Part shown: positions 1 through 64,000 of the stretch, one piece after another
How positions within the stretch are numbered: the first letter of the stretch is position 1
Layout of the letters: every line of letters starts with the position of its first letter
From: Candidatus Latescibacterota bacterium
Lineage (GTDB): Bacteria; Latescibacterota; UBA2968; UBA8231
Length of the DNA stretch: 64,000 nt
Assembly (NCBI GenBank): GCA_964291625.2
Contig: OZ220090.1
Coordinates: 1 to 64,000, forward strand
Reading direction: 5' to 3'
The notes under the pieces: generated by a model
Seen by the model: only the letters and a program-made list of their open reading frames with translations
Databases searched by the model: none
What the model was told of the DNA's origin: nothing
Position numbers and translations under genes: made by a program

Positions 1-1
1 G

Positions 2-42072: not shown

Positions 42073-43989
42073 ATGAGAGCTGCACGACTCGTCTTCGTCA
42101 CCGGGGCCCTGGTCGCGCTCACCGCCGGCATGGCGGCCGCCCAGGGAGCCATCGGCGGCGAGGACAACCAGATCACCGAGAGCCGCATGCCCACGGTGCT
42201 CACGGTCGAGGTGGCGGACATGACCGTCAGCAGCTTCCCCGTGGACATCCCCTTCACCACCAGCGGCTCGGCGGCCACTGTCTACCTGGCCGTGTACACC
42301 AACCTCTCCGACGCCGACCTGCCGGGGCGCACCACCGAGGGCGAGTTGAACTGGCACACCTACCAGGAGATCGACTACGCCCTCTACGTCTCCCCCGGCT
42401 CGCGGTTCGAGCCCGGTTCCCACTCGATCACCTGGGACGGGAATGACATGGGCGGCAACGGCGTCGATCCGTCCGGCAGCTACCGCTTCTTCATCATCGC
42501 CCTCGACGATCAGGCGCCGATCAACATGGTGGGCTACACCAACGCCCGCCATACATCGGAGTCCTGCCTGGCCCGCGACCAGAACGGCGACCTCTTCATC
42601 CTCAGCGGCGGCTCGGTGGTCCGGCTCACGGACGGCGGCCCCCGCCACCTGATCCTCTCCAGGGTCGGCACCAACTGGATCGAGACTCCGGGAGCATGGC
42701 AGGCGATCGACGTCGAGGACGAGTTGATGCCGGTCTTCCACACCGACGACATCGTGCCCGTCGAGTGGGCCGGCGGCGGCAACGGCAAGCAGTACGGCTC
42801 CCTGCCCGGCGACTTCTACGGGGACTCCTTCGGTGCTGTCGCGGGCGACGAGGACGGCAACGACTACGGGGCGATCAAGTTCAACGTCGACCCCGCCAAC
42901 GGCCAGGTCACCCTCGACCGCAACTTCGGCGACCAGGGCGACGGCCGCCTGAAGTTCGAGCCCTTCAGCGACGGCAACCTCATCGTCGGCTCCACGGGCA
43001 TCGATTCCTGGGACGGCCTCATCTACTACCCGATCTACGACCGGGGCCGCGACGCCCCCGCCCACTCGAACGTGGGCGTTCAGGACCCGGCCACCGGCAA
43101 CGTCGTCGATGTCCTCGACCTGTCCGAGTGGAACGTGGTCGACGTGGGCGCCGGCAACCAGGCCTTCAGCCCCCACGACATCTGGGTCGACGGCACCGGC
43201 GTCTATGTCGTCGGCTACGCCGCGCCGCTGCACCTCAAGATCACCCTCGATGGCGAGCTGAAGTGGATCAACAACAACGGCGACGGCTTCGCCGACAGCA
43301 TCAACCCCGACACGGGCGACTTCGACTACGGCTCCTTCGCCTACACCCCCTGGAACACGGCGGGCTCGGGTAGCAAGGACGGCTGGGGCTTCGCCTACAT
43401 CCCGCTGCTGGGCAGCACCACCAGCACGGTCGACATCCTCGGCCCGGACGGCACGGGGATCCTGCACATGGTCGCCACCCACGCTCCCGCCCACTGGCCG
43501 CAGTGGGTCGAGTCGATCGAGGAGGACGGTCCCTACGACGGCCTCTACTGGGACATCGGCTCGCGGCGCGGCGGCGGCGGCGATCCCTGGGACGTGCCCG
43601 ACTTCACCGGGTTCCCGGCGCGTCAGGCGATCCACTTCCCCTTCGACCTCAAGTCGGCCGTGATCAACAGCGACACGGCCGTGGAGGAAGTGGCGGGCGC
43701 CGGCACGCCCGGGTCCTATTCCCTGGCCGACGCCTACCCCAACCCCTTCAACCCGGAGTCGACGATCCGCTTCAGCCTCCCCCGGGAGGAGCACGTGAGC
43801 CTGCAGGTCTTCAGCCTGACGGGCCAGCTGGTCAAGACCCTGCACGAGGGGTTCGTGGAGGCCGGCGTGTATGAGAGCGTCTGGGACGGTATGAACGAGT
43901 CCGGGGAGAGCGCGGCCAGCGGCGTCTACCTGTACAGCCTGCAGGCCGGCTCCTTCCAGGCGACCAAGAAGCTGACCCTGCTCAAGTAG
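42073..43989 (+). CDS. Secreted protein with FlgD Ig-like / T9SS type A-like C-terminal sorting domain
   Basis: RBS AGGAG and signal peptide MRAARLVFVTGALVALTAGMAAA. Internal FlgD-like ITWDGNDMGG. C-terminal YPNPFNPESTIRFSL...WDGMNESG...SGVYLYSL...TKKLTLLK. Confidence 0.88.
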   Translation: MRAARLVFVTGALVALTAGMAAAQGAIGGEDNQITESRMPTVLTVEVADMTVSSFPVDIPFTTSGSAATVYLAVYTNLSDADLPGRTTEGELNWHTYQEIDYALYVSPGSRFEPGSHSITWDGNDMGGNGVDPSGSYRFFIIALDDQAPINMVGYTNARHTSESCLARDQNGDLFILSGGSVVRLTDGGPRHLILSRVGTNWIETPGAWQAIDVEDELMPVFHTDDIVPVEWAGGGNGKQYGSLPGDFYGDSFGAVAGDEDGNDYGAIKFNVDPANGQVTLDRNFGDQGDGRLKFEPFSDGNLIVGSTGIDSWDGLIYYPIYDRGRDAPAHSNVGVQDPATGNVVDVLDLSEWNVVDVGAGNQAFSPHDIWVDGTGVYVVGYAAPLHLKITLDGELKWINNNGDGFADSINPDTGDFDYGSFAYTPWNTAGSGSKDGWGFAYIPLLGSTTSTVDILGPDGTGILHMVATHAPAHWPQWVESIEEDGPYDGLYWDIGSRRGGGGDPWDVPDFTGFPARQAIHFPFDLKSAVINSDTAVEEVAGAGTPGSYSLADAYPNPFNPESTIRFSLPREEHVSLQVFSLTGQLVKTLHEGFVEAGVYESVWDGMNESGESAASGVYLYSLQAGSFQATKKLTLLK

Positions 43990-44179
43990 CGGCCAGCGGC
44001 AGTCTCGGCAGATGGACAAGGTGAGCGATCTCTTCGAGGGTCGCTCACCTTGTCTGTTTTATGCCTCTCCGGGGTCCGGCGCAGGCCCGTCGCGGGGCCG
44101 CTCCCCCGTACTTCCCATGATTCCGCGGGGCGCGGGGCCGACAGGTGGATCTCCACCAGGAAAGGGAAGAAGGCTCTCA

Positions 44180-46327
44180 TTGGGAACAGGACTTCCTTCG
44201 CTCGTTCCGGGTCTGCTGCTCCTCGGCGTCCTCGCCGGGCCGGTCGGGGGTGACGTGCTCCGCATCGGTCACTGGCAGCAGACCACCTGGTACCGCCACA
44301 CCTTCAACGCCGACGAGGCCAGGGACGCCCTGCTGCGGATCACCGCCGCGGGGGAGTACGTCCTCTATCTCAACGGCGCCGAGGTCGCTTCGGACGGCGA
44401 CTGGCGGACCGCCGAGGCGGTACCCGTCTCCCTGGCACAGGGCGACAACCACATCGCGGCGGCGGTGACCAACCTCCCGGGAGAGTCCGGAGCCGGGCTC
44501 CTCCTCAGCCTTCAGGGCGGCCCCCTGGTCGCCCGCAGCACCTTCTCCGACGAGACCTCCCCCTGGTACTGGACGGGGGAGGGGCAGGACGGCACGGGCT
44601 GGACCACGGCTGACGTGGAGGGCACGTGGAGCCGCGTCGGCGCCGGGTCGATCGACCGGGTACGGGTGAGCGAGGCGATCTTCCACCCCGAGGCGGAGCC
44701 GGTCGCCGGCTATCCCAACGCGGTGAATCTCGCCAGCTCGCCGGAGGGCCGCATCGTCCTGGCCGATCAGCGCGGACGGAACATCGCCCTCGGGGCCAAC
44801 GCCACCGAGGTGGGCGTGACCGACGGGACGATCGGCCTCCCCGTATGGTCCCTGCCCCAGGGGCTGGGAGCGCTGAACCGGGTCGTCGACGTCGCCCTGC
44901 CGGAGCTGACCCGGATCGAGCGGGTCCGGGTGATCACCAAGCCCCCGGAGGGCAACGAGACCTGGGCGGGCAACTCCCTCCTCGGCTACTCGGTGCAGGT
45001 CAGCGAGGACCAGTCCCGATGGATCGAGATGGGGGGCGTCAACGACATCGAGAACCATCTCTTCACGGAGGTCCGCTTCAATCCGGTCCTGGCGCGGCAC
45101 GTCCGCGTCCAGGTGACCCAGGCCGAGGTCGGAGCCGACCCCGCCAAGGTGGCGGAGGTCCAGATCTACGGGGTCGACTTCGTTCCCGCCGGGTCCTACG
45201 TCTCCCCGCCCCTGGACCTGGGCGACCCGGAGGCGGTGAAGAACTTCGGCCGCGTCCGCTGGTGGGGGGATGTGCTTCCCGCCACCTCCCTGGGCCTGCA
45301 GTTCAGCACCGGCGACAGCCCGGACACGACCGACGGGAGCTGGAGCGCCTGGAGCGAGGAGATGGTGGACTCGGGCGCCCTCGTCTCTTCTCCCGAGCCT
45401 CGCCGGTACCTGCGCTACCGCGTGAACCTGCGCACCGACGATCTCGAGTTCACCCCCGGTCTCGACAGCCTCGAGATCGACTATGACCCGCAGGGGATCG
45501 CGGCCCGAAGCGCCACCGCTTCGGTGGTGCCCAACGAGGCCCCCATGGGACAGGACGTGGACTTCCTCCTCAGCGTCGGCATGGCCCTGGAAGAGGGGGA
45601 TGCCCTGGAGCGGATCCGCGTTCGCCTTCCCAGCCTCCCCACGGCCGTGAACTCGATACAGCTCCTGGGGCAGGAGATCGCCGTGCCGGAGTTCCCCACG
45701 GGCGAAGGAGGCCTGGACGCGGGCGGGCGGATCCTGCGGGTGGCCCCGGCCGACGTGCGGGACGTGGACGTCAGTTTCGATCCACCCCTCACCTCCGCGG
45801 ACGGCAGCGAGATCCCCTTTGCCATCTCCGTGCGGTGCGCCCTCTACACCGACACCCACGAGTTCCGCGCCTCCCTCTTCAGCCCGGGGTCCGAGAATCC
45901 CCTGAACGTGCTGGAGGAGACCGCGGAGGGGGCCTCCTGGACCGTGGTGGTGACCGACGTCGTGGCCGGAGACCTGCTGCAGGTCAGGGCCCAGCCCCCG
46001 GCCTTCTCGCCCAACGGCGACGGGATCAACGACTTCACGATCATCGAGTTCGCCCTCGCCAAGGTGACCGAGCCCCGCCAGGTGGACGTGGACCTCTACG
46101 ACCTGAGAGGGCGCCGGGTCCGGAGGCTGGAGACGCCGCCCCTCATCGGAGGGCGCTACCTCCATCCGGGTCTGGGAGCGGCGGAGTCGGCCTTCTCTCC
46201 CGGGTTCTGGGACGGAAGGGACGACGCCGGCAACCTGGTGCCGCCGGGGATCTACCTGTTCTCGGTGCGGGCGAACCTCGACGGCGGTGACGCGGCCGTC
46301 TCCGGAGTGGTCCATGTGGCCTACTGA
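44180..46327 (+). CDS. Secreted multidomain protein: galactose-binding-like and F5/8 type C-like domains + FSPNGDG/FlgD C-terminal domain
   Basis: Likely TTG start at 44180 giving a signal peptide (the ORF track starts at 44012). Motifs LRITAAGEYVLYLNG and YSVQVSED..W...FNPVLARHVRV. C-terminal FSPNGDGINDFTIIEF, LYDLRGRRVR and WDGRDDAGNLVPPGIY. Confidence 0.82.
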   Translation: MGTGLPSLVPGLLLLGVLAGPVGGDVLRIGHWQQTTWYRHTFNADEARDALLRITAAGEYVLYLNGAEVASDGDWRTAEAVPVSLAQGDNHIAAAVTNLPGESGAGLLLSLQGGPLVARSTFSDETSPWYWTGEGQDGTGWTTADVEGTWSRVGAGSIDRVRVSEAIFHPEAEPVAGYPNAVNLASSPEGRIVLADQRGRNIALGANATEVGVTDGTIGLPVWSLPQGLGALNRVVDVALPELTRIERVRVITKPPEGNETWAGNSLLGYSVQVSEDQSRWIEMGGVNDIENHLFTEVRFNPVLARHVRVQVTQAEVGADPAKVAEVQIYGVDFVPAGSYVSPPLDLGDPEAVKNFGRVRWWGDVLPATSLGLQFSTGDSPDTTDGSWSAWSEEMVDSGALVSSPEPRRYLRYRVNLRTDDLEFTPGLDSLEIDYDPQGIAARSATASVVPNEAPMGQDVDFLLSVGMALEEGDALERIRVRLPSLPTAVNSIQLLGQEIAVPEFPTGEGGLDAGGRILRVAPADVRDVDVSFDPPLTSADGSEIPFAISVRCALYTDTHEFRASLFSPGSENPLNVLEETAEGASWTVVVTDVVAGDLLQVRAQPPAFSPNGDGINDFTIIEFALAKVTEPRQVDVDLYDLRGRRVRRLETPPLIGGRYLHPGLGAAESAFSPGFWDGRDDAGNLVPPGIYLFSVRANLDGGDAAVSGVVHVAY

Positions 46328-46357
46328 GAGATCCTCCCCCGGAGGCGCCGAGGGCTC

Positions 46358-49063
46358 GTGAAAGTCCGAACCCTCACACGATCCGCGCTGGCGGTGGCAG
46401 CGGCGTCCCTGCCCCTAGGCCCCCCCGCCGAGGCCCAGATGCTCTCCCGGGAAGACTACCCCCTGTGGGAGAAGGAGGCGTACGAGAACATCGGCCGCTT
46501 CGGGTACCGCGACTTCGACGAGCGCGACGTGGAGAGGCGGGTCTACGACCCCTTCGGGGTCTACCTCATCGATGGCGTCCCGGTCTTCGCCCTCGAGGAG
46601 AGCCGCACCCAGGGACCCGAGCGGGGCAGCGGCATCTTCAAGAGCCCCCTCTATCCGAGCATCTTCCGCAACCTGATGATCGGCATGGACTCCTACCGGG
46701 GGTGGGCGGCCTCGATCATGGTGGGCGACGCCGTGCCCACGCGGTTCTCTTCCCTCACCCTGAACCTGAGCCGGCTCAACGGCATCCGCTTCGACGCCTC
46801 CTCCCGCAAGTCGAGCTTCAGCCTCGTGGGCTCGCGAATCTCCGACCCGGTGCTGCTGGCCACGGGCCTGACCCAGAGCGGCGTCCAGGTCAACCCCGAG
46901 GGCGTTTTCGGAAGGCCGACCTTCGGGAGCTACCTCATAGGCGGCCACTGGGAGACGACCCTGGGCAACGTCCTCACCCTCGGATCGAGCTACGTCAACG
47001 TCCACAACTTCGACAGCGTCGCGGGCCGGGACGAGGGATCCCTCAAGGGAGTCGTTCCCTTTTCCGGCCTGGAGGAGGCGAGGTCGGTCTTCGTCATCGT
47101 CACCGACGATTCCCACTGGGACCGCAACGGCCCCAAGATCTTCCGAATGGAGATCTACGTCGACGGCGAGCTCCGGGAGGACATCGAGCCCATGATCCGG
47201 ATGCTTCCGTCGCTGCCCGTTCTCGTGGGGGAGGCGAACCGGGAGATCGGACTGGGGACGAGCGAGATCAACCTGCGGCGGGCGGACCGGCCCTCCTGGT
47301 TGATCGAGAGCTACCAGATGGAGGAGATCGTCCGCGAGGGCTATGACCGCCGGGGCAACCTCAGCAACTTCACCAGCGGCGGCCTGTTCTTCAAGGGGGG
47401 CGTGGAGGTGACCCACGAGGGGGTCCCCTTCCTGCGGGCCGAAGGGACCGACGTCCTCGTCTACCGGTTCGACGTGCCCCCGGGGACGAGGGAGGTCCGC
47501 TTCCGTGCTCTGGCCGCCGGGGACTACGTGATCGACGTGGCCAGCGCCCTCGGCTGGATCGGGACGGACGTGCAGTGGCGGGACTGGCACACGGTGGAAC
47601 GCGCCCCCGGAAACGTCCGCGACGACGGCAACATGCGGTGGGTCACCTTCCGCTACGGCTTTCCCACCGGCATGGTCCTCTTCGGCATGGACTTCGAGGC
47701 CAGCCTCTTCGGCTTCCGGGCTTGGGGGGAGTTCGCCCGCAACCGGTCCTACTTCAAGTTCCCCTCCGGCCAGGGGGGGCGACTGTCCACGACCGAGGAC
47801 GCCTGGTTCATCAACCTCTACCGGGAGGTGGGGGCCTGGGACCTGGGCTTCGAGTACATGAACATGCCCTCGGCCTTCGCCACGAGCTTCCCGGCCCTCA
47901 TGCAGAACCCGCGGCAGAACGTGGTGGCCCCCTTCGAGCTGGTGGACGACAACGACGACCGCGACGAGTGGCCCGACCGCTGGGAACAGCAGCGCGACTT
48001 CGCCTCACTCAACCTCACGCCGGCGCCGGGATCGGGACTGGGCTTCGGCGTCTTCCCCGGGCTCGACGTGGACAACGACGGCCAGCGGGACAACGTCTGG
48101 TACCGCGGCGCCGACCGGATCCTGACCTACTACGACCAGCCCTTCTATTTCGGCGACGACTTCAACAACAACGGGCTGGTGGACGGGTGGGAGAACGACA
48201 ACCGGCCGGACTATCCCTACGACCTGGACCGCCGGGGAGCGCACGGCTTCGTCACCTGGCGGCCCTTCTCCGACCGCAAGAGCGTCTGGATGCGCCTCGG
48301 CCGCTACGACGTGCGGCAGCCCGACGGCGGCGGCCGGGACCGGGCCATCTACCTGAAGGCCAACTACCTGCGGCGCTGGGAGGGGCTGGGGCGGGTGCAA
48401 CTCAGCTACTACGGCAAGCGGGTCCGGGACGACGTGCCCGACGACCTCTACCAGCTCAGCAGCGGCTACCGCATCCTGCCCGACCGGCTGCTGCGGCGCA
48501 ACAGCCTGGTGAACACCCTCCTGGCGGGGGGCCACCTGAACACCGACGCCCTCCCGAACCTCAACATCTACAACGACATTCGGCTCTCGATCAACGACCA
48601 GCGGGAGCTGGAGGAGGAGGACTTCCAGCAGCCCGACGCCCGGGTCACGGGCGTGGGCTACGTGGCCCGGGCGGATTACACATGGCGCCTCGGGCCAAAC
48701 CTGAGCTTCGGCCCCATGTTCAAGGCGACCGTCAACCGCACCCTGGCGCGCCTTCCCAGCCTGCGGAGCCACAGCTACACCCTGACGCCGATCTTCCGGG
48801 GCGACTACCGCTTGGCGTCGAGCACGGTGCTGCGGGCGGGGCTGCTGGGAGTGCCCTTCCGGGCGCAGTCCCGGAACCTGCTGTGGCCGTTCCTCGACAA
48901 CGACTCCTGGTACTACATCCTGCTGTTGGAGAACCTCGGCAACTACCGCGGTATCGACGTGAGCACCAGCATCGGCTTCCAGAAGAACTACGTCCGCTAC
49001 ATCTCCTCCCACCGGGTCCCCAGCGGGTCCGAGCGCTACTTCATCCGGCTGCGGATCGGCTAG
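46358..49063 (+). CDS. Large hypothetical exported protein, putative outer-membrane beta-barrel with Asp-rich loop (paralog 1)
   Basis: Signal peptide ending AEA. Alternating aromatic/hydrophobic strands. Motifs DDNDDRDEWPD, GVFPGLDVDNDG, DFNNNG and PDYPYD. Confidence 0.7.
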   Translation: MKVRTLTRSALAVAAASLPLGPPAEAQMLSREDYPLWEKEAYENIGRFGYRDFDERDVERRVYDPFGVYLIDGVPVFALEESRTQGPERGSGIFKSPLYPSIFRNLMIGMDSYRGWAASIMVGDAVPTRFSSLTLNLSRLNGIRFDASSRKSSFSLVGSRISDPVLLATGLTQSGVQVNPEGVFGRPTFGSYLIGGHWETTLGNVLTLGSSYVNVHNFDSVAGRDEGSLKGVVPFSGLEEARSVFVIVTDDSHWDRNGPKIFRMEIYVDGELREDIEPMIRMLPSLPVLVGEANREIGLGTSEINLRRADRPSWLIESYQMEEIVREGYDRRGNLSNFTSGGLFFKGGVEVTHEGVPFLRAEGTDVLVYRFDVPPGTREVRFRALAAGDYVIDVASALGWIGTDVQWRDWHTVERAPGNVRDDGNMRWVTFRYGFPTGMVLFGMDFEASLFGFRAWGEFARNRSYFKFPSGQGGRLSTTEDAWFINLYREVGAWDLGFEYMNMPSAFATSFPALMQNPRQNVVAPFELVDDNDDRDEWPDRWEQQRDFASLNLTPAPGSGLGFGVFPGLDVDNDGQRDNVWYRGADRILTYYDQPFYFGDDFNNNGLVDGWENDNRPDYPYDLDRRGAHGFVTWRPFSDRKSVWMRLGRYDVRQPDGGGRDRAIYLKANYLRRWEGLGRVQLSYYGKRVRDDVPDDLYQLSSGYRILPDRLLRRNSLVNTLLAGGHLNTDALPNLNIYNDIRLSINDQRELEEEDFQQPDARVTGVGYVARADYTWRLGPNLSFGPMFKATVNRTLARLPSLRSHSYTLTPIFRGDYRLASSTVLRAGLLGVPFRAQSRNLLWPFLDNDSWYYILLLENLGNYRGIDVSTSIGFQKNYVRYISSHRVPSGSERYFIRLRIG

Positions 49064-49066
49064 GCC

Positions 49067-55105: not shown

Positions 55106-55648
55106 ATGAGGAACCTCATCCTGACCCTTGTCCTCTCCGGGATCCTGCTGCCCTGCCGCGCCCACGCCGAGGAGGACGTCTTCGCCGCGCGCGAGACCGC
55201 CTCCCGCAAGCGGGCCGTGATCCTGTCGGCCCTCTTCCCGGGGCTGGGGCAGCTCTCCACCGGGCGCCAGGTGACGGGGACGATCCTCCTCGTCGCCGAG
55301 ATCGGCTCCCTGGCGACGGTCCTGACGGCCAACGAGAACTACAACACCCGTCTCGACAACTTCGAGCGGCTGAAGTCGGAGTACGAGCAGATGGCGGCGG
55401 GCAACAGCCGGCACGACCTGGCCGAGCAGCGCTGGAAGGAGCTGACGGCCGAGGCCGACGACCTCGACGGCCTGCACAACCTGCGCCGGGCCTACACGGC
55501 CGCCGCCGTGGGCATATACGTCTACAACCTCGTCGACATCCTTCTCCTCAACCCCCCCGAGGCCGCGGCGGCCAGGTCCTGGAGCCTGCGCGCCGTGCCC
55601 GGTCTGGGGGAGGGGCCCGCCCGGCTGATGGTGACGGGAAGCTTCTGA
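55106..55648 (+). CDS. Hypothetical membrane/exported protein (DUF5683-like)
   Basis: Signal peptide, AVILSALFPGLGQL motif, a helical segment, and IYVYNLVD. Confidence 0.65.
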   Translation: MRNLILTLVLSGILLPCRAHAEEDVFAARETASRKRAVILSALFPGLGQLSTGRQVTGTILLVAEIGSLATVLTANENYNTRLDNFERLKSEYEQMAAGNSRHDLAEQRWKELTAEADDLDGLHNLRRAYTAAAVGIYVYNLVDILLLNPPEAAAARSWSLRAVPGLGEGPARLMVTGSF

Positions 55649-55667: not shown

Positions 55668-56045
55668 ATGAGCAAGGCTCTCTGGCCGTTGCTGGCCGTC
55701 CTTTCCCTCTGCATCTCGGGGTGCAGCGAAGAGCACAGCCTCCCCTCGAAGTTCCACGACGGCAGGGTGGAGACTCCCGCCGACCTGGAGGCGAGGTTCG
55801 AAGGGGACGACGTCGTCCTGGAGTGGAACGTCGACGGGCCCGGGGAGATCCTCTACTACATCGTCACCATGGCGGAGGGCACCACCGGCGCAGAGCGGCA
55901 GTTCACCGCGCCCGGGGACAGCGCCTCGTACGCCCTGGTGGAGTTCGCCTGGACCGACTCCTTCTACATCTTCCAGGTGCAGGCGGTGGACCATACCGAC
56001 TTCGTGGGAGAGGCCTCCAACGTGGACACCCTCTTCGTCCCATGA
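55668..56045 (+). CDS. Small lipoprotein with fibronectin type III-like domain
   Basis: Lipobox ISGC and the FN3 pattern TPADLEA...VVLEW...YYIV...YIFQVQAVD...GEASN. Confidence 0.7.
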   Translation: MSKALWPLLAVLSLCISGCSEEHSLPSKFHDGRVETPADLEARFEGDDVVLEWNVDGPGEILYYIVTMAEGTTGAERQFTAPGDSASYALVEFAWTDSFYIFQVQAVDHTDFVGEASNVDTLFVP

Positions 56046-57295: not shown

Positions 57296-57325
57296 GCCGG
57301 CACGGGCGGTGAAGGAGCAATCGAG

Positions 57326-58054
57326 ATGTGGGAGATCCTGAAGAGCGGCGGCCCCCTCATGGTGCCCCTCACCATCTGCGCGGTCCTGGCCGTGGCCTAC
57401 ACCATCGAGCGGCTCTGGGTCCTGGGCCACATCCCGGCTCCCGGCCGCGCCAAGGAGGAGCTGGACCGGCTCGAGGCATCCCTCCTCAACGGCGGCCGCG
57501 AGGCGGTGGTGGAGGAATGCAACGAGGGCAAGGGGGTGCTCAACTTCATCTTCTCGTCGCTGCTCAAGCGCCACGACACCCTGCTCATCGAGCAGCGGGA
57601 GTTCCAGGAGACGAACCAGGAGATCGTCCGTCTCGCCGAGTCGGCGGGGGGAGGCGAGGTGGGCCGCTTCATGGTCATGCAGAGGGAGCAGACCGACATG
57701 AAGGGCGAGTTGGTGATCGAGACGGAGGCCGCGGCCCGCACCTACCTGGCCCGGAACCTCCCCACCCTGTACACCATCGGCAACATCAGCCCCCTTTTGG
57801 GACTGCTGGGCACGATCATGGGCATGATCATCGCCTTCGAGTCGATCGCCGTGGCCGGCGCCGGGGACCCGAGGGTGGTGGCCGGGGGCATCTCCCAGGC
57901 CCTGGTGACGACCGCCTCGGGGCTGATCATCGCCATCCCGACGATCGTCGCCTACCGCTACCTGTCGCGCCGCGCCGACAAGGCCCTGGAGCAGGTCGAG
58001 GTCTACGGCCACGCCTTCGCCAACACCCTCCTCCTATCGAGGCCGCCGGCCTAG
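57326..58054 (+). CDS. exbB: MotA/TolQ/ExbB proton channel family protein
   Basis: RBS AAGGAG. Motifs GGPLMVPL, TIGNISPLLGLLGTIMGMIIAF and GISQALVTTASGLIIAIP. Confidence 0.92.
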   Translation: MWEILKSGGPLMVPLTICAVLAVAYTIERLWVLGHIPAPGRAKEELDRLEASLLNGGREAVVEECNEGKGVLNFIFSSLLKRHDTLLIEQREFQETNQEIVRLAESAGGGEVGRFMVMQREQTDMKGELVIETEAAARTYLARNLPTLYTIGNISPLLGLLGTIMGMIIAFESIAVAGAGDPRVVAGGISQALVTTASGLIIAIPTIVAYRYLSRRADKALEQVEVYGHAFANTLLLSRPPA

Positions 58055-58072
58055 GGTCTCCCGGAGCACGGC

Positions 58073-58489: not shown

Positions 58490-58492
58490 GGC

Positions 58493-58903: not shown

Positions 58904-58907
58904 TCCC

Positions 58908-60251
58908 ATGAACCTGAAGACCGCTCTCCTCGTCAGCCTCCTCTTCGTCGGCGTCCTCGGGGCCGTGCTCTACTCCAACCGGCGTGAGGGGCAGTTGGAG
59001 GAGGCCGACGTCCTCTCCCGGGAGTTGCTGCTCTTCGACAAGAAGGAGGCCGACGAGCTCACCGTCGACGGCCCCAAGGGGCGGGTGGTCTGCCGCAAGG
59101 TGGGGGACCAGTGGAGGATCGTCGAACCGATCGACGCCGACGCCAGCCGCGGCGCCGTGGAGACGGTGCTGGTCAACCTGGAGCGGGCCCGCCTGAAGAA
59201 ATACCTGCTTCTGGAGGACTCCGGCGACCGCGACCTCCTCGAGGAGTACGGCCTCGATCCGCCCCACATGATGGTGACCCTTCGCGTCCGGGGGAGCGTC
59301 CTCGACACCGTCCTCTACGGGGACAGCCCCATGGGCGTGTACGTCTATGTCAAGAAGACCTCCGAGGACCGCGTCGGCATGGTCGAGCTCTACCGGCGAA
59401 CCGGTGTCAACCGCGGGCTGGCCCAGCTGCGGGAGAAGCGGGCCCTGAAGTTCGAGGTGGGCCATGCCAGTGAGCTGCGCATCGAGAGCCCGGGCGGCAC
59501 CATCGAGGTGGCGCGGCTGGACGACGGCTGGCGGATGCACAGCCCCATGGAGACGCGGGGCGACGAGGAGGAGATCCGGAAGGTCCTCAACAGGCTGAGC
59601 GCGCCGGTGGAGGAGTTTGTCGACGACAGTCCGGCGGGCCTCGGGGAGTACGGCCTCGACGCCCCGCGGTACCGCATCGGGGTTACGACGGCCGACGGCG
59701 AAGCCTTTGGCCTGTGGGTCGGCGGCGGGGCGGAGAACGGCTTCTACGCGAAGAACCTCTCCCAGCCCTCGGTCTTCACCGTCGACTCGGCCCTCGTGGA
59801 GCGGCTCGACGAAGCCGCCTTCGGCCTGAGGTACAAACACCTCCTCGCCTTCGAGAGAAAGGCCGTGGACCGCGTCGAGTTCGCCTACCCGGGGCGGACC
59901 GTCCTCTGCGTGCGGGAGGGCACGGCGTGGCTGGCCGTCCCCCAGCAGCGGCCCGTCAATGGCATCGAGCTCGACGCCATCCTCTACAGCATGGAGGAGC
60001 TGCGGGCGGAGGACTTCCTCGCCGGCGACGCGGGTTCCGCCGCCTACGGGCTCGAGCCGCCGCGGGCTCGGATCCGGGTGTGGGCCGCGGAGCGGCTCGT
60101 GGGCGACCTGGCCCTCGGTCAGGTGCAGGGAGACCGGGTCTACGCCAGGGGAAGCGAGATCGACCTCGCCTGCCTCGTCGACAGGGAGACGGCCGAGCTC
60201 CTGGGGGTGGACCGGATCTTCAAGGAACAGGGCTCGAGCGGTGGCGGATGA
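58908..60251 (+). CDS. DUF4340-domain protein (N-terminal membrane anchor, three internal repeats)
   Basis: N-terminal TM and three repeats each containing W...P and YGL(D/E)xP (EYGLDPP, EYGLDAP, AYGLEPP). Confidence 0.8.
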   Translation: MNLKTALLVSLLFVGVLGAVLYSNRREGQLEEADVLSRELLLFDKKEADELTVDGPKGRVVCRKVGDQWRIVEPIDADASRGAVETVLVNLERARLKKYLLLEDSGDRDLLEEYGLDPPHMMVTLRVRGSVLDTVLYGDSPMGVYVYVKKTSEDRVGMVELYRRTGVNRGLAQLREKRALKFEVGHASELRIESPGGTIEVARLDDGWRMHSPMETRGDEEEIRKVLNRLSAPVEEFVDDSPAGLGEYGLDAPRYRIGVTTADGEAFGLWVGGGAENGFYAKNLSQPSVFTVDSALVERLDEAAFGLRYKHLLAFERKAVDRVEFAYPGRTVLCVREGTAWLAVPQQRPVNGIELDAILYSMEELRAEDFLAGDAGSAAYGLEPPRARIRVWAAERLVGDLALGQVQGDRVYARGSEIDLACLVDRETAELLGVDRIFKEQGSSGGG

Positions 60252-61495
60252 AGCGCGTCCTCCGGCTCAAGTGGGGCGCCGCGGCCGTGGTGGCCGCCGG
60301 CCTCGGAGGGGCTCTGTACTACCACTTCGGCGTCGCCGAGCCCCGGCGGAGCCGCGCCGAGGCACAGGCCCTCTTCGAGGAGGGCAACGCCCGCCTGGGC
60401 GCGGGGGAGACGGCCGCCGCCATCGAGGTCTACCAGCGGGCCCTCGACCGCGACGCCGGCTTCGTGCCCGCCTACAACGGCCTGGGAATGGCCTACCGGG
60501 CCTCGGGAGAGTCCCCGCGGGCCGAGGCGCTCCTGCAACAGGCCCTGTCCATCGATTCCACCGTGGCGGAGACCTACAACAACCTGGCCATCGTCTACTC
60601 CGAGAGCGGCCGGGTGGCGGAGGCCGAGGCCGTCTACAGGAAGGCCCTCGCCATCGATCCGAACTCCGCCGTGACCTACTTCAACCTGGGCGCCTTCTAC
60701 TCCCAGGTCGGGCGCTACGCCGAGGCGGTGCAGGAGTACGGCAAGGCGTTGCAGCTGCGCCGCGGGCTCTACCAGGCCCACAACAACCTGGCCCTGGCCT
60801 GCATCGCCCTCGGCCGGTCCTCCCAGGCGGTGCGGGAGCTGAAGCGCTCGATCGAGCTGAACCCCCGCCAGGGCCGGGCCTGGTACAACCTCGGTCTGGC
60901 CCACGAGGAGGAGGGCCGCTACGAGGAGGCGGCCGACTGCTTCCGCGCGGCCCTGGAGCACGAGCCCGGGGTGGCCGCCATCCACTATCACCTCGGCGTC
61001 GTCCACGAGGGGCTGCAGCGCGAGACGGAGGCCATGGAGAAGTACCGGGAGGCGATTTCCATCAAGCCGTCCCACAGGGAGGCCCACTACCGCATGGGCC
61101 GGCTGCTGGCGGCGCAAGGCCGGTACGAGGAGGCCGAAGCCGGGTTGTCGAAGGCCATCGAGATCGATCCGGAGTACGCCGACGCGCGCTACAACCTGGG
61201 CCGTCTCTACATGAGGCAGGGCCGGACCGCCGAAGGGCGGCGGGAGATGGAGCTGTTCCGCCAGATGAGCGAGTACGACAAGGAGAGGGAGAAGGTCAGC
61301 CGCATTCTGCTGTACATGCCCGGCGACGCCAACTCCCGCTGGAAGCTGGGTCAGGTGCACGAGAAGTACGGTAAGTACGACCGGGCCATCGAGGAGTACC
61401 GGAAGGCCCTGGCCATCCGTCCCGGCTTCGAGGAAGCCCGGCAGGCCCTCGAGTCGGTGCTCGAGGCGCGTCCCCGGGAGGAGGATCGCAGATGA
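60248..61495 (+). CDS. Membrane-anchored TPR protein
   Basis: ATG 60248 overlaps the previous stop. TM WGAAAVVAAGLGGALYY, followed by about 10 canonical TPRs (AYNGLG, TYNNLA, TYFNLG, AWYNLG, ARYNLG). Confidence 0.9.
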   Translation: MKRVLRLKWGAAAVVAAGLGGALYYHFGVAEPRRSRAEAQALFEEGNARLGAGETAAAIEVYQRALDRDAGFVPAYNGLGMAYRASGESPRAEALLQQALSIDSTVAETYNNLAIVYSESGRVAEAEAVYRKALAIDPNSAVTYFNLGAFYSQVGRYAEAVQEYGKALQLRRGLYQAHNNLALACIALGRSSQAVRELKRSIELNPRQGRAWYNLGLAHEEEGRYEEAADCFRAALEHEPGVAAIHYHLGVVHEGLQRETEAMEKYREAISIKPSHREAHYRMGRLLAAQGRYEEAEAGLSKAIEIDPEYADARYNLGRLYMRQGRTAEGRREMELFRQMSEYDKEREKVSRILLYMPGDANSRWKLGQVHEKYGKYDRAIEEYRKALAIRPGFEEARQALESVLEARPREEDRR

Positions 61496-64000
61496 GCTTG
61501 ATCGGACTGTCGATCGTCGGCGTCACCCTGGGCATTTCCCTCCTCGCCCGGGACGTGCCCACCGAGGACTACATGCTCTCCACCTTCCAGGCGGGCCAGA
61601 GCTTCTACTCGGAGGGCGCCTACGACCAGGCGATCGAGAAGTACAGCGACGTGGGCGGCGTCCGCAGCCTCCTCCTCGACGACGCCGCCATCGTCGTCGT
61701 CGTGGGCGACGTGGAGACCACGGTCAAGGACGCGGCCATCTACCAGGTGGGCAACTCCTACTTCAAGATGTTCGAGGAGGAGTTCCAGGCCGCCGAGGCC
61801 ACGGCCAACGAGCGCCAGCAGGAACAGCGCCTCAAGAGGGCCAACGAGTACCTGGAGGAGGCGGTGAGCCACTTCTCCCGGGTCGAGAAGCGGTCCGGCT
61901 CCGAGGAGCTGCGAGTCCTCGCCATGAGTCGGATCATGACGAGCTGGTACACGGCCCGGCGCTACCAGGAGGTCATCCGCGTGGGCCGGGAGTTCGTCGA
62001 CAGGTATCCCGACAGCGCCTACCTCGTGGAGGCCCTCTACAACATCGGCTGGTCCTGGTACGAGCTCGGGGACCATGCCCGCAGCATCGAGGCCTTCACC
62101 GAGCTGACGGAGCGATTCGAGTCCGGCTTCCACGTGAGCCGGGCCCTGTTCCAGATCGGGGAGTGCTGGTACGACCAGGGCCGCTACGCCGAGGCGATCC
62201 CCTGGTACCAGCGGCTGGTGGACCGCGCCGACATCCTCGAGCTGACCGAGCAGGAGATCCAGCGGATGCAGTTCGAGAAGGTCGCCGGCCTCGTGGACGA
62301 GACCGAGTACGAGCTGACCGCCAAGGCCCAGATCCGCATCGGCGACAGCTACGGCCGGCTGGGGGAGTTCGAGCAGGCCGAGGAGTCGTACCGCGTGGTG
62401 ATCTCGGTCTTCGCCCGGGAGCGGCGCCTCGTGGAGCGCGCCTACCAGAGCCTGGCGGACATGCACTTCGAGAACCGCCGCCTGGAGCGCTGCGTCGCCG
62501 CCTACCGCGAGGCCATCGACAACATCCCGAACCGCATCTTCAAGGCGCGCATGCAGTTCCAACTGGCCAAGCGCTACGCCGAGGCGAGCCGGGAGTGGGG
62601 CGAGGACCTCTTCGACGACGCCGTCCGCGAGTACAACGTCTACCTGAAGGGCTACGCCGAGGTGGCGCACCAGGCCGGGTTCACCCCGGCCAACGCCTGG
62701 TTCGAGATCGGCCAGGCCCGCTACGCCGAGGCCGAGGGCCTCGCCCAGGCCGGGGAGGAGAGCCGCGAGGCCTACGGCCGGGCCCTGGAGGCGTACTCCA
62801 CCATCCTCGAGCAGTACTCAGACCCGAGCTTCCTCACCGCCGCCCGCTTCAACGCCGCCCTCTGCAAGCAGCGGATGGGCGGGGAAGCCGAGCTCGCCGA
62901 GGCGGTGGCGGCCTTCCGCGGCATCATCGACGAGGACCCCGCCGGCACCTACGCCCGCAGCTCGCGGTTCCAGCTGGCGCGCATGTACTTCGGCCGCGAG
63001 GAGTTCGACCGCTCGGCCGGCGTCTACGCCGAGATCATCGCCGAGGCCCGCGACTCCACCCACCTCGACATCGCCCGCTTCGAGCTGGGTCTCGTCCTGC
63101 AGAAGGGGGGCGACCTGGAGGGCGCCGTGGAGGAGTTCCTCGCCGTACGCCGCTCGGCGCCGCAGTTCTCCCTCTCCCGCCTGGAGGCGGGCCGCGCCTA
63201 CGTGAGCCTGGAGAGCTACGACCGCGCCCTGGAGGTGCTCTCCGCGGGCCTGGAGGCCGCCGGGGACGACGGCGAGCGCGCCCAGTATCACTACCTGACG
63301 GGCAAGGCCTGGGCCGGCCGGCAGGACTACGAGCCCGCCGTGGAGGCCTTCACGCGGACCATCGCCCTCACCGCCGACCCGGCCCTGGTGGAGATCGCCC
63401 GCTACGACCGGGGGACGGGCTACTCCCGCCTCGAGCGCTACGCCGAGGCGGAGAAGGACCTGCGGGTGCTGGTCGATTCGGGCAACGAGCGCATCCGCGG
63501 CCCGGCGCAGAAGATGCTCGGACTGGCCTACCTGCGCCTCGGCCGCCAGCAGGAGGCCCTGGCCAGCTACGGCCGGCTCGCCGAGACCTCCGCCGACGCC
63601 ACCGAACGGGCCGAGTACATGGTGCTCATGCTCGAGCTGTTCTTCGAGCTGGAGCAGTTCGACATGGCCATCGCCACGGGCCGGCAGATCCTCGACCAGG
63701 AGTTCGAGGACAGCCTCGAGCACAAGGACTACTGGATCGACGAGCTGGTGTACTACCTCATCGGCGAGAGCCAGTACCGCAGCGGCCAGGCCGACGCCGC
63801 CATGGCCACCTACGCCGAGGGCCTGCGGCGCTTCCCCGCCTCCTGGTACTCGCCCGACATGGCCTACGCCCTCGGCACCCTCTACTTCGAGGGCGACCGC
63901 CTCGACGACGCCACCCGCACCCTGGCCGACTTCGTGAAGCGCTTCCCGCGCTCCCCCAACGCCCTGTACGGCCGGTACTACCTCGGGTACGCCCACTTCA
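61492..64000 (+). CDS. Large exported TPR protein, 3'-truncated by window edge (missing from the ORF track)
   Basis: ATG 61492 overlaps the previous stop, with GAGGAGG upstream. It reads MSLIGLSIVGVTLGISLLARDVPTEDYMLSTFQAGQSFYSEGAYDQAIEKY... and the same frame ends ...SPNALYGRYYLGYAHF, similar to HGNAPYALYYRGYGHF in the TPR protein at 2..1690. Confidence 0.85.
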   Translation, partial: MSLIGLSIVGVTLGISLLARDVPTEDYMLSTFQAGQSFYSEGAYDQAIEKYSDVGGVRSLLLDDAAIVVVVGDVETTVKDAAIYQVGNSYFKMFEEEFQAAEATANERQQEQRLKRANEYLEEAVSHFSRVEKRSGSEELRVLAMSRIMTSWYTARRYQEVIRVGREFVDRYPDSAYLVEALYNIGWSWYELGDHARSIEAFTELTERFESGFHVSRALFQIGECWYDQGRYAEAIPWYQRLVDRADILELTEQEIQRMQFEKVAGLVDETEYELTAKAQIRIGDSYGRLGEFEQAEESYRVVISVFARERRLVERAYQSLADMHFENRRLERCVAAYREAIDNIPNRIFKARMQFQLAKRYAEASREWGEDLFDDAVREYNVYLKGYAEVAHQAGFTPANAWFEIGQARYAEAEGLAQAGEESREAYGRALEAYSTILEQYSDPSFLTAARFNAALCKQRMGGEAELAEAVAAFRGIIDEDPAGTYARSSRFQLARMYFGREEFDRSAGVYAEIIAEARDSTHLDIARFELGLVLQKGGDLEGAVEEFLAVRRSAPQFSLSRLEAGRAYVSLESYDRALEVLSAGLEAAGDDGERAQYHYLTGKAWAGRQDYEPAVEAFTRTIALTADPALVEIARYDRGTGYSRLERYAEAEKDLRVLVDSGNERIRGPAQKMLGLAYLRLGRQQEALASYGRLAETSADATERAEYMVLMLELFFELEQFDMAIATGRQILDQEFEDSLEHKDYWIDELVYYLIGESQYRSGQADAAMATYAEGLRRFPASWYSPDMAYALGTLYFEGDRLDDATRTLADFVKRFPRSPNALYGRYYLGYAHF

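Follow-up and report, generated by a model that had tools for sequence, protein, structure and literature searches.

The locus at 42073-64000 of the window (the whole stretch of DNA that was analysed, 64,000 nucleotides) is best explained as a trans-envelope module of Candidatus Latescibacterota that is conserved and exists in several copies, of which this is one. The cluster's genes travel together across the phylum, and the cluster is conserved and repeated in sponge-associated Latescibacterota. With a little less than even confidence, we propose a Ton-like module, energised by the proton-motive force, in which a DUF4159 protein would take the place of TonB and act on giant barrels that hold CTD surface proteins.

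Gene content of the cluster

We called genes from the ORF list with a GC3 frame filter (the window is 66-75% G+C). As originally predicted, 42073-64000 holds a co-directional run: 14 genes, all on the + strand and continuing up to the window's end. The cluster is longer than predicted, however: the last TPR gene extends to C2:64773 and is followed by two additional genes, for lipoprotein X (64796-65584) and for Y (65585-66526), so that the cluster continues to C2:66526 and totals 16 genes. The genes are tightly packed, also as predicted, with spacing of −4 to +127 bp (19 bp or less in 7 of 11 measured gaps). Sponge metatranscriptome contigs cover 30/30 bins of 42001-62000 with pieces at least 99% alike, although DNA carry-over is possible. 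The features are:

42073..43989, +, CTD1: secreted 638-aa protein; signal peptide, Ig-like domain, beta-propeller, type-A-like T9SS C-terminal domain
44117..46327, +, CTD2: secreted 736-aa protein, lectin-like (F5/8 type C region), type-B-like CTD at its end; alternative start at 44012
46358..49063, +, Big1: 901 aa; predicted undescribed outer-membrane beta-barrel family
49067..51895, +, Big2: 942-aa paralog; the Big protein that was modelled
51895..55059, +, Big3: 1054-aa paralog; start and Big2 stop share 1 base
55106..55648, +, DUF5683-family small envelope protein: signal peptide; Pfam DUF5683 29.7 bits (cut-off 26.7)
55668..56045, +, FN3-like lipoprotein: 125 aa, lipobox ISGC
56042..57295, +, DUF4159 protein: Pfam DUF4159 102.6 bits; candidate energy transducer
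57326..58054, +, ExbB/TolQ-family proton channel: MotA_ExbB 100.4 bits
58073..58489, +, ExbD/TolR paralog 1: ExbD 93.1 bits
58493..58903, +, ExbD/TolR paralog 2: ExbD 104.4 bits; 38% identical to paralog 1
58908..60251, +, DUF4340 protein: N-terminal membrane anchor; DUF4340 145.7 bits; specific to the window-type arrangement
60248..61495, +, TPR1: 415-aa TPR protein with N-terminal anchor; specific to the window-type arrangement
61492..64000 (ends C2:64773), +, gTPR: giant TPR protein, 1093 aa; YbgF/BamD-like TPR_6 repeats
1..4186, +, W0: cut cluster copy; tail of a cluster, truncated by the contig start
2-1690, +, W0 gTPR C-terminus
about 1630-2886, +, W0 DUF4159 paralog
2807-4186, +, W0 X-like protein

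Domain scans with Pfam (15 cluster proteins) and NCBIfam agree with the first assignments of DUF4159, ExbB, two ExbD, DUF4340, and two TPR proteins. The protein first described as an FN3 lipoprotein is indeed a lipoprotein, but we call it only FN3-like because its fn3 match (19.1 bits) falls below the cut-off of 25; it has a paralog in cluster A.

Two secreted CTD proteins had been predicted, and both are encoded here. CTD1 matches FlgD_ig (55.8 bits) and TIGR04183 Por_Secre_tail (34.4 bits, cut-off 23); the matches of CTD2 (F5_F8_type_C, 27.7 bits; CHU_C, 22.2; FlgD_ig, 22.8) are all slightly below the Pfam cut-offs. CHU_C, the type B CTD, does exceed its cut-off in five CTD2 paralogs, and an alignment of 13 orthologs and paralogs (A3) gives the CTD motif FxPNGDGxND ... 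VAY. The best Foldseek match of the CTD1 model (AF2; pLDDT 79, pTM 0.74) is PorZ (5m11, E 9.6e-9), but with a TM of about 0.2, and the other matches are generic propellers.

Big1, Big2, and Big3 match no Pfam or NCBIfam family. They are paralogs, as had been claimed, with pairwise identities of 30% over 932 columns (E 5e-89), 30% over 587 (E 1e-54), and 31% over 642 (E 2e-75); Big1 is 30% identical to each of the other two. The AF2 model of Big2 is of moderate confidence (pLDDT 69, pTM 0.67) and has about 30 long strands; an insert rich in beta structure spans about 217-422, and an Asp-rich loop about 511-643. The strand count and the membrane side of the inserts are uncertain because they were read from the secondary-structure string alone. 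Its Foldseek matches are SlpA (8agd/8ae1, E 1e-9), MtrB (6r2q), LptD, and SprA (8gl8, E 2e-5), VIA gives Z of 11-13.7 against many barrels, and a profile search finds 853 representative proteins at E ≤ 1e-3. The Pfam scan found no Plug, TonB_dep_Rec, or TonB_C in the 15 cluster proteins, and none of the genome's 24 Plug and 2 TonB_C matches lies inside the cluster. We therefore reject the idea that the Big proteins are ordinary plug-containing TonB-dependent receptors: as modelled, they form a family of large plug-less outer-membrane beta-barrels that was not previously described.

Copies in the genome and in relatives

The locus is not unique, and a copy of the module has one to three Big genes. 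The genome has 25 Big genes, four complete triads (clusters W, A, B, and C), the cut fifth copy W0, and a divergent sixth, D; one relative has up to 107 first-look Big candidates. The W0 genes are 44-64% identical to their counterparts in clusters B and C, and Pfam matches in 1-4186 also support this assignment. The copies have diverged, and each has its own CTD proteins, at 28-37% identity. The genome has more than 130 CTD-tail loci, and the cluster's CTD proteins are two among them. CTD1 body paralogs are confined to the four full clusters, where 4/4 loci have Big genes within 6 kb. The same is true of 19 of 24 CTD2-body-like loci, against 18 of 134 type-A tail loci, which speaks for a link between cargo and barrel. 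The pairing of a cargo gene with a barrel gene resembles the logic of SprB/SprF and PorZ/PorQ. (For the PorP/SprF family, neither this genome nor the control genomes gave a match above cut-off.)

To ask about neighbourhoods, we used 17 loci from relatives in families f1, f5, f10, and f13; they are not independent, as they were picked as the best Big matches and the genomes are kin. The conserved unit was confirmed. The block of CTD protein, Big, gTPR, DUF4159, and lipoprotein X recurs across at least three Latescibacterota families. gTPR lies beside Big genes in 16/17 loci (the other is ended by a contig end), DUF4159 is in 15/17, X is in 14/17, and ExbB-ExbD-ExbD adjoins the block in 13/17 (three others are ended by contig ends). 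All ten f1 loci, one from each of ten genomes, have at least one CTD gene, Big2, Big3, gTPR, DUF4159, and X, and nine have a Big1 ortholog. Two of them (G017 and G011) have two CTD2-like genes each and no CTD1. ExbB-ExbD-ExbD is adjacent in seven of the ten; one has two ExbD only, and two are ended by a contig end. In f10, f13, and f5, gTPR-DUF5683-ExbB-ExbD-ExbD is found in 6/7 loci, with DUF4159 in 5 (the seventh locus is cut). DUF5683 is present in 6/10 f1 loci and 6/7 loci of the other families; DUF4340 occurs at synteny only in G007 and G014. Records labelled Kryptoniota and Planctomycetota retain the order CTD2-like-Big-gTPR, and those labelled Thermokryptus and Zipacnadia retain Big-gTPR.

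A dedicated stator and a candidate transducer

The original prediction of a dedicated ExbBD was borne out. Cluster-linked ExbB form their own clade (support 97/98), separate from TonB-linked ExbB, and a canonical ExbB-ExbD-ExbD-TonB locus lies elsewhere (C1:4131.8-4134 kb). The window's ExbB and its counterpart in cluster A are 73% identical. Six of eight MotA_ExbB matches in the genome are inside clusters or within 12 kb of them. Clusters B, C, and W0 lack a stator of their own, which counts against the module; a second type of ExbB-ExbD-ExbD lies 4-12 kb from them.

The DUF4159 gene directly follows ExbD-ExbD in 5/6 f10/f13 loci and follows ExbD in cluster D. (We took its start as 56042 rather than use the longer overlapping ORF 55721-57295.) In an alignment of 14 orthologs and paralogs, the protein has a conserved cytoplasmic N-terminus (RF.APSD.L), one TM helix, a short Pro-rich basic linker, and the periplasmic DUF4159 domain, whose sole PDB relative, 4i66, is uncharacterised. 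It is bitopic and shares the topology of TonB and, in many loci, its place in the operon, and 9/19 sequences inspected (the 14 plus 5 further N-termini) have a histidine in the TM helix; these features favour the proposed role. Against it, the protein lacks the TonB C-terminal domain, the TM helix is poorly conserved, and the histidine is missing from the window's own copy.

Proposed mechanism and alternatives

We propose that the genome's SprA-type translocon carries CTD1 and CTD2 over the outer membrane and that their CTDs would then hold them on the adjoining Big barrels, as putative, outsized carrier or anchor proteins. Against this, no known CTD carrier comes near the size of the Big barrel, which rather hints that something passes through it. 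In full clusters, Big1, Big2, and Big3 would form a three-subunit outer-membrane platform, with gTPR, X, the DUF5683 protein, and the FN3-like lipoprotein as its putative periplasmic scaffold. ExbB/ExbD would convert the proton-motive force into movement, which the DUF4159 protein would relay to the platform. In favour of a chaperone in the module, 7/7 SurA-like PPIase paralogs have Big genes within 7.1 kb. The surface work could plausibly be the release, movement, or remodelling of the lectin and propeller proteins; energised uptake of what these proteins bind, or something else, we consider somewhat less probable, each to a like degree. Secretion, gliding, and uptake would all be compatible with these data.

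A second possibility, which seems rather unlikely, is a nutrient uptake machine, the Latescibacterota counterpart of SusCD/TonB-dependent utilisomes: the T9SS-anchored lectin CTD2 and propeller CTD1 would catch glycans or glycoproteins, with the Big proteins as import channels gated by ExbBD-DUF4159. In its favour, the barrels are wide and plug-less, their massive expansion is SusC/D-like, the operon order is Ton-like, and each barrel gene has as neighbour a surface binding protein whose F5/8 type C regions are discoidin/CBM-like. Degradative genes abound in the neighbourhood, with a fucosidase, DUF4838, M28 peptidases, an Opp transporter, a sulfatase, and FGE near clusters W, B, and C, and DUF6785/6784 membrane proteins flank several clusters (7/27 paralogs are within 10 kb of Big genes). 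However, none of 52 proteins around eight smaller Big loci belongs to glycoside hydrolase, lyase, or sulfatase families; the recurring proteins are SurA-like PPIases, TPR, and PMT_2-TPR proteins. Also, neither a plug nor a TonB box is recognisable in Big, and the genome already has its 24 Plug receptors and TonB.

Third, the clusters could be dedicated translocons, the secretion variant of the original reading, which we consider improbable. Big, or the triad, would be a SprA-like export pore for the adjoining CTD cargo, gTPR would play the part of SprE/PorW, ExbBD-DUF4159 would be the motor in GldLM's stead, and the SurA-like PPIase would serve as chaperone. This parts list parallels the Extended Translocon, described in PMC10994853 as SprA-PorV-PPI-SkpA-SprE driven by a PMF motor. 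It would also fit with SprA's place among the Big2 fold matches, with a weak gTPR match to PorW/SprE (NF052312, 70 bits), and with SprA in 146 of 151 genomes of the phylum against GldM in 0/151, the latter from a search in which no control genome gave a match. (GldM, GldL, and GldN are likewise not found in this genome, by searches in which no control genome gave a match.) But SlpA, MtrB, and LptD outrank SprA as fold matches, and the PorW/SprE match of gTPR is far below the cut-off of 250. The genome also has SprA, a PorV-family gene, two PorU, and a PorZ-like gene, all outside the cluster, which can account for export. Families f2 and f4 have SprA (30/30 and 19/19 genomes) and no Big (0/30 and 0/19), so the phylum's T9SS is independent of the Big module; the window-type DUF4159 has only weak matches in 4/4 f2 genomes and none in 2/2 f4 genomes. 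CTD export is thus probably by the SprA route rather than the cluster's, and it is more likely that the cluster works on, or together with, surface proteins delivered by the T9SS. Of the original reading, the conserved unit, the dedicated stator, and the non-receptor barrels stand, while a secretion route distinct from T9SS is not needed to explain export of the cargo.

Fourth, and with still poorer prospects, a Tol-Pal-like or BAM/TAM-accessory system could use the stator, gTPR, and SurA-like chaperones to insert or tether structural giant barrels, likened to SlpA, the Deinococcus S-layer/OM protein that is the best fold match. The best NCBIfam matches of ExbB and ExbD are TolQ and TolR (both below cut-offs), gTPR exceeds the cut-offs for YbgF (TIGR02795, 138 bits versus 90) and the BamD subfamily (TIGR03302, 88 versus 81), PPIase genes adjoin Big genes, and no TolB is above cut-off in the genome (E. 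coli and Caulobacter controls passed). However, the Pfam scan found no Pal/OmpA-like or TolA-like gene in the cluster, f2 and f4 lack the cluster, and five to six diverged copies with their own divergent CTD proteins fit specificity modules better than a housekeeping system.

Finally, that an ordinary Ton-type stator operon sits by chance beside surface-protein and porin genes is unlikely, and very much so: ExbB-ExbD-ExbD operons are common in FCB bacteria, and B, C, and W0 have their closest stator at a distance of 4-12 kb, but the adjacency across families, the ExbB clade, the separate TonB-linked set, and three independent stator-DUF4159 pairings within one genome all argue against it.

Of these explanations we favour the Ton-like module. 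The combination of an ExbB/ExbD motor with an undescribed family of giant barrels suggests a hitherto undescribed envelope machine.

Gene content of the cluster and its copies in the genome

The genome (5.9 Mb, 95% complete, 6.6% contamination) consists of two contigs, C1 and C2, and the window is the first 64 kb of C2. The G+C content of the window is 66-75%, and because spurious open reading frames are plentiful at such high G+C, we picked reading frames by their third-position G+C. Fourteen genes on the + strand lie between 42073 and the end of the window, with intergenic spacings of −4 to +127 bp; we term this unit cluster W. We place its start at 42073 because the two upstream genes, one GlcNAc-2-epimerase-like and one encoding a DUF6785/DUF6784 protein, run on the opposite strand. 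Pfam and NCBIfam upheld nearly all of the gene labels in the original prediction: two secreted proteins with T9SS-type C-terminal domains (CTD1 and CTD2), three large paralogous proteins with no family match (Big1, Big2, and Big3; putative outer-membrane barrels, see below), a DUF5683 protein, a DUF4159 protein, a stator set (ExbB-ExbD-ExbD), a DUF4340 protein, and two TPR proteins (TPR1 and the giant gTPR). The small lipoprotein that had been labelled FN3 is also present, but its fn3 match is below the cut-off. The cluster continues past the window: gTPR (1093 aa) ends at C2:64773 and is followed by a lipoprotein (X) and protein Y, which belong to the same conserved set. Unrelated genes begin at ~66.5 kb.

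Near-identical sequences in the run index come mostly from sponge metagenomes. In one sponge metatranscriptome, contigs cover 30 of 30 bins of window 42001-62000 with pieces that are at least 99% alike, which could include DNA carry-over. In two RNA runs from two other studies, a ~94%-alike CTD1 gene is covered more deeply than the rest, by contigs from 42062/42067 to 44009/44013, and there is a terminator-like hairpin at 44035-44052, just after CTD1. These data hint, weakly, that CTD1 also has an abundant transcript of its own.

The surroundings of cluster W include a degradative neighborhood (window 18240-28578 and 29606-38513) with an alpha-L-fucosidase, a DUF4838 protein, two Phosphodiest-family proteins, two M28 peptidases, an Opp-type ABC importer, and two GlcNAc-2-epimerase-like genes. 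Beyond the window, C2:77158-79998 (L041:13158-15998) encodes the DISARM helicase DrmD (936 bits, cut-off 610). The DUF6785/DUF6784 membrane protein at window 38543-40597 (- strand) has counterparts at 26 other places in the genome; the 27 paralogs may be inner-membrane transporters. Some of them border a smaller Big locus and clusters W, A, and B, and 7 of the 27 are within 10 kb of a Big gene.

Searching the genome with the cluster proteins (tblastn) and comparing all called ORFs against each other located five further copies.

Further copies of the cluster in the same genome
A, C1:4457.7-4435.9 kb: complete, with CTD1, CTD2, Big1-3, gTPR, DUF5683, lipoprotein, DUF4159, X, Y, ExbB, and two ExbD
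B, C1:372.8-354.5 kb: CTD1, CTD2, Big1-3, gTPR, DUF4159, and X
C, C1:26.6-8.2 kb: gene set as in B
W0, window 1-4186: tail of another copy, truncated by the contig start
D, C1:283-306 kb: divergent, with DUF4159-like, ExbD, ExbB, gTPR-like, X-like, two Big, and three CTD2-like genes

The stators of cluster A are 73% (ExbB) and 71% (two ExbD) identical to those in the window. In cluster C, the DUF4159 gene (C1:9392-10625) matches in two frames (tblastn pieces 10274-9714 and 9718-9395), which may reflect a frameshift or an assembly error. Each Big protein is 33-40% identical to its positional counterpart in the other clusters, as compared to ~30% to its neighbors in the same cluster, so the triad predates the duplication of the clusters.

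The genome contains 25 Big genes, 12 in four triads and 13 in smaller loci. In the smaller loci, one or two Big genes are typically accompanied by between one and three CTD2-like genes and by a SurA-like prolyl isomerase, often with TPR or PMT_2-TPR membrane proteins and FG-GAP/ASPIC proteins. All seven SurA-like paralogs are within 7.1 kb of a Big gene (five of them within 1 kb). This family is long (550-615 aa), has two parvulin domains, and occurs only beside Big genes.

SurA-like paralogs on C1
166115-167716
589299-590927
1781828-1783471
2973769-2975409
3412725-3414314
4216420-4218051
4434072-4435724

PMT_2 (ArnT/PMT-like glycosyltransferase)-TPR membrane proteins adjoin three of the smaller loci on C1 (in the fetched stretches, L044:15027-17144, L045:8166-10550, and L046:2-1816); they could glycosylate envelope proteins.

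Such loci might be organized like PULs, with the Big proteins serving uptake. As in SusCD utilisomes, there is an expanded barrel family whose members are each paired with a neighboring surface binding protein, and the organism is rich in degradative enzymes. In contrast to SusCD, the barrels have no plug, there is no SusD, and the binding proteins are CTD proteins instead of lipoproteins. Also, none of the 52 proteins that we scanned around eight smaller Big loci belongs to a CAZyme or sulfatase family. A PUL-like organization survives only as a rival reading.

Conservation among relatives and the relationship to type IX secretion

A Big profile matched all 24 of the other genomes in family-level group f1 and none of 16 genomes from sister families. 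Across a sample of 151 genomes from the phylum, 94 were positive, including f1 (63/63), f10 (13/13), f9 (5/6), and all genomes of f5, f6, f7, and f11-f14; the profile found no Big in f2 (0/30), f4 (0/19), f3 (0/2), or f8 (0/5). Among 71 Big loci in named records, almost all are from MAGs labelled 'Candidatus Latescibacterota' or 'Gemmatimonadota', and a few are from records labelled Kryptoniota, Thermokryptus, Zipacnadia, Planctomycetota, or Myxococcales.

The cluster is syntenic in relatives. We compared 25-35 kb around the best triads of 10 f1 genomes, and all 10 loci have at least one CTD gene, Big2, Big3, gTPR, DUF4159, and X; nine also have Big1. Seven of the 10 have ExbB-ExbD-ExbD alongside (one genome, G023, has two ExbD and no ExbB in the stretch), and two loci stop at a contig end shortly after X. 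G007 and G014 share the gene order of the window, in which the stator, DUF4340, and TPR1 precede gTPR. In other families, 6 of 7 loci have Big-gTPR-DUF5683-ExbB-ExbD-ExbD (five from f10 and one from f13), with DUF4159 directly after ExbD in 5 and X in 5; the f5 locus is truncated after Big2. Short loci with other phylum labels keep CTD2-like-Big-gTPR or Big-gTPR. As these loci are the best Big matches from related genomes, the counts describe conservation and are not independent trials.

CTD1 is a type A CTD protein: it has a signal peptide and matches TIGR04183 with 34.4 bits (cut-off 23), with PF18962 at 25 bits of the required 27. Its AlphaFold2 (AF2) model (pLDDT 79) has an Ig-like domain, a beta-propeller, and the CTD, and its top Foldseek match is PorZ, although only at the level of a generic propeller. 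CTD2 has lectin-type beta-sandwich regions and a C-terminal domain with an invariant PNGDxxND that ends in VAY. At 22.2 bits it falls short of the Pfam cut-off (27) for CHU_C, the type B CTD, and it has no NCBIfam match, while five CTD2-like paralogs exceed that cut-off (27.8-32.1 bits). In the PDB, sequence searches with DUF4159, CTD1, and CTD2 turned up 4i66 and FlgD-like tails and nothing else. Of the 24 CTD2-body-like loci, 19 are within 6 kb of a Big gene, as are 24 of the 34 loci with CTD2-type tails, but only 18 of the 134 loci with CTD1-type (type A) tails. The CTD1 body is restricted to the four full clusters.

In gliding bacteria, the cargo gene sprB is immediately followed by sprF, which encodes an outer-membrane barrel, and the cluster, whose CTD proteins are type-A-like and type-B-like, has the same arrangement of cargo gene and barrel gene. 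Like the T9SS and gliding systems described in PMC10994853, it also has a large TPR protein, a prolyl isomerase, and a PMF-driven stator, which belongs to the same superfamily as theirs. Despite these similarities, the Big barrels are unrelated in sequence to PorV, PorP, or SprA; the stator is of the ExbBD type, with DUF4159 in the place of GldM; and the module is multi-copy. gTPR passes the YbgF and BamD-subfamily cut-offs but matches the PorW/SprE model NF052312 weakly (70.3 bits, cut-off 250), and its hydrophobic N-terminal segment has no lipobox.

A dedicated secretion route for CTD proteins, one of the options in the original prediction, is not needed to explain their export. Components of a T9SS lie elsewhere in the genome: SprA (a summed 607 bits) is at C1:98.5-104.8 kb, a PorV-family gene (241 bits, cut-off 90) adjoins a PorU (572 bits), and a second PorU (537 bits) adjoins a PorZ-like gene (140 bits of 260). 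Of the 151 Latescibacterota genomes, 146 have SprA, including 30/30 from f2 and 19/19 from f4, two families where no Big was found. When we searched six complete f2 and f4 genomes with the window's DUF4159, f2 gave only partial matches of 29-36 bits and f4 gave none. Because SprA is kept in families without Big, the SprA translocon exists in the phylum without this module, which argues against the module being a general T9SS motor or the export route for CTD proteins. In favor of a motor role, GldM (GldM_1st, TIGR03517), GldL, and GldN had no match in the genome, nor did GldM_1st in the 151 genomes, but these negatives are unvalidated because no T9SS-bearing control genome was included. What lends them interest is only that models of SprA, PorU, and PorV built from Bacteroidota proteins do succeed in this phylum. 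Overall, the idea that the ExbBD cluster is the phylum's general T9SS motor is weakened. The genome's only match to PorP/SprF (TIGR03519) is 20 bits, in the PorV-like gene, for a model that matched no control genome.

Barrels, stators, and the DUF4159 protein

Big1, Big2, and Big3 (901, 942, and 1054 aa) have signal peptides and are ~30% identical to each other over most of their length. They match no Pfam family and no NCBIfam family, that of the PorP/SprF carriers included. Only 33 relatives, each either unnamed or 'hypothetical', came from a word-indexed search; their records are labelled Gemmatimonadetes or Latescibacterota. A 31-sequence profile extended this to 853 representative proteins at E ≤ 1e-3, including 280 at E ≤ 1e-30. 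In the ESM Atlas, the 30 clusters nearest to Big2 are all unnamed, and the closest named one (DUF6029, 0.89) is only a lead.

The AF2 model of Big2 (pLDDT 69, pTM 0.67) consists almost entirely of long antiparallel strands, ~30 in number, with a beta-rich insert at ~217-422 and an invariant Asp/Asn-rich stretch at ~511-643 that is poorly modelled. Its top Foldseek matches in the PDB are SlpA of Deinococcus (E = 1e-9), MtrB, and LptD (E up to 1e-6), with SprA at 2e-5. VIA, which is independent of Foldseek, gave Z scores of 11-13.7 to many outer-membrane barrels (7zgx, Z = 11.7 over 394 residues). As the TM scores are only 0.14-0.25, these matches establish only the fold class. Based on signal peptides, modelled secondary structure, and fold matches, the Big proteins are predicted to be outer-membrane beta-barrels. 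Sharing this fold with SlpA, MtrB, and LptD shows no function: the Big proteins are just 6-10% identical to them and have neither an SLH domain nor the LptD N-terminal domain.

Apparent internal stops in some Big1 orthologs probably arise where the match extends past the end of the gene and so includes its normal stop codon; for the G007 ortholog, the translated reference is stop-free. Complex prediction for Big1 (residues 28-901) with the C-terminal domain of CTD2 (residues 625-736) gave no answer (score 0.00), which is evidence neither for nor against binding.

TonB-dependent transporters have an N-terminal Plug domain within a barrel of 22 strands. The Big proteins are not ordinary TonB-dependent receptors because they have no Plug domain (no PF07715 or PF00593 at E ≤ 0.01 in the Pfam scan), and none of the genome's 24 Plug matches is inside any cluster. 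The original prediction is thus not refuted on this count, which it had named as a refuting outcome. More broadly, the original prediction had recognized no TonB, TonB-dependent receptor, or TolA/TolB/Pal in the cluster, and this stands: TonB_C is absent from the 15 cluster proteins scanned, and no TolA, TolB, or Pal family was found there with Pfam or NCBIfam. TolB was not above the cut-off anywhere in the genome, in a search that did recover it from the E. coli and Caulobacter controls.

The stator proteins of cluster W pass their Pfam tests (PF01618 at 100.4 bits; PF02472 at 93.1 and 104.4 bits), and all fall below the cut-offs of the equivalog models for TolQ, ExbB, TolR, and ExbD. Of the genome's eight MotA_ExbB matches, three are inside clusters W, A, and D, three form a second clade, one belongs to a TonB-linked set, and one is a weak outlier. 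Cluster-linked ExbB proteins from nine loci form a single, dedicated clade (support 97/98). The three copies of the second clade (support 95/92) lie near the clusters without an internal stator: 4 kb from C, 7 kb from B, and 12 kb from W0.

Second-type ExbB-ExbD(-ExbD) sets (60-70% identical among the three copies)
window 12848-17052, - strand
C1:29882-31186
C1:345903-347461

After the second-type stator in the window there is a 770-aa gene (12848-15160) that matches no Pfam family.

The DUF4159 protein has a conserved cytoplasmic motif, one transmembrane (TM) helix, a short linker that is Pro-rich and basic, and the DUF4159 domain. The sole solved relative, 4i66, is an uncharacterized protein. 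In many loci DUF4159 directly follows ExbD-ExbD, which is where TonB is found in this genome's own Ton locus: the only strong TonB_C match (C1:4131840-4132070) adjoins another ExbB-ExbD-ExbD (the TonB-linked set, C1:4131.8-4134 kb). Given its place in the operon and its topology, we propose that DUF4159 is the candidate energy transducer. TonB and TolA carry a TM histidine, and DUF4159 has a reminiscent one in 9 of the 19 sequences inspected; the helix is variable and the window copy lacks this residue. The carriers are all five DUF4159 proteins from f10 and f13, clusters B and W0, G021, and G023, and it is missing from window-type and A-type copies.

The cluster resembles a Ton system in its Pfam families (ExbB and ExbD), in its order of ExbB-ExbD-ExbD and then a bitopic inner-membrane protein with a Pro-rich stretch, in having outer-membrane barrels as presumed targets, and in occurring as several paralogous sets per genome. 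It differs in that TonB_C and Plug/TonB_dep_Rec are missing, the canonical Ton locus is separate, the barrels are of ~30 strands and from an unnamed family, and the partner proteins carry T9SS CTDs.

Another parallel is the Agl-Glt gliding machinery of Myxococcus, together with the Nfs spore-coat machinery. These combine a stator of one TolQ/ExbB-like and two TolR/ExbD-like proteins with large TPR proteins, barrels in the outer membrane, and an adhesin at the surface, and a single genome encodes paralogous complexes of this kind. The cluster has counterparts of all these features but not of the TonB-like GltG/J, and its CTD proteins point to T9SS biology. In the NCBIfam scan of cluster W no Glt-specific family is above its cut-off; GltE (90.6 bits, cut-off 225) and Tgl (135 bits, cut-off 225) match only at the level of TPRs. 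X has no named relative at ≥ 0.9 in the ESM Atlas.

A possible proton-driven envelope machine

The cluster's products might form one trans-envelope complex. CTD proteins would be delivered by SprA and then held by the Big barrels, while DUF4159 would couple the stator to the barrels. How the energy is used we can only infer, and the handling of surface proteins is not separable from uptake. Taken as a whole, this architecture-level explanation seems to us not quite as probable as its negation. A wider proposal, which we offer tentatively and with some doubt, is that Latescibacterota and a few neighboring candidate phyla have an unrecognized class of proton-driven envelope machine, in which a dedicated ExbB-ExbD-ExbD and DUF4159 (replacing TonB, TolA, or GldM) would act on hetero-oligomers of giant plug-less barrels that are loaded with T9SS-delivered lectin and propeller proteins.

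The literature that we searched, which comprised papers outside subscription, held no account of the cluster, of the Big family, or of the function of DUF4159 (which appeared only in the Pfam database paper), and nothing on Latescibacteria together with type IX secretion. No function for DUF5683, DUF4340, or DUF6785 was given in the parts of papers that were accessible. The accessible part of a 2015 paper on Latescibacteria mentions porins and Ton import and does not mention the cluster.

Few stator-driven trans-envelope systems are known (Ton, Tol, flagellar Mot, Agl-Glt, and GldLM), and each opened a field. This module joins that stator superfamily to an unnamed outer-membrane family, with 853 representative clusters and no Pfam family, whose barrels are about the size of LptD, MtrB, or SlpA and consistently have T9SS-type surface proteins as partners. 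DUF4159, DUF5683, and DUF4340 gain a context in which their roles can be tested. The module also sharpens a question: with SprA near universal in the phylum and GldLM undetected (in searches without a positive control), what is the energy source for T9SS-like secretion or surface-protein handling outside of Bacteroidota? If our proposal is correct, then the module would be functionally equivalent, in this phylum, to SusCD utilisomes or to the mobile-adhesin system of Bacteroidota, with dozens of specificity modules per genome. The cluster may also serve as the principal surface apparatus of an uncultivated lineage whose near-identical sequences in the run index are mostly from sponge metagenomes.
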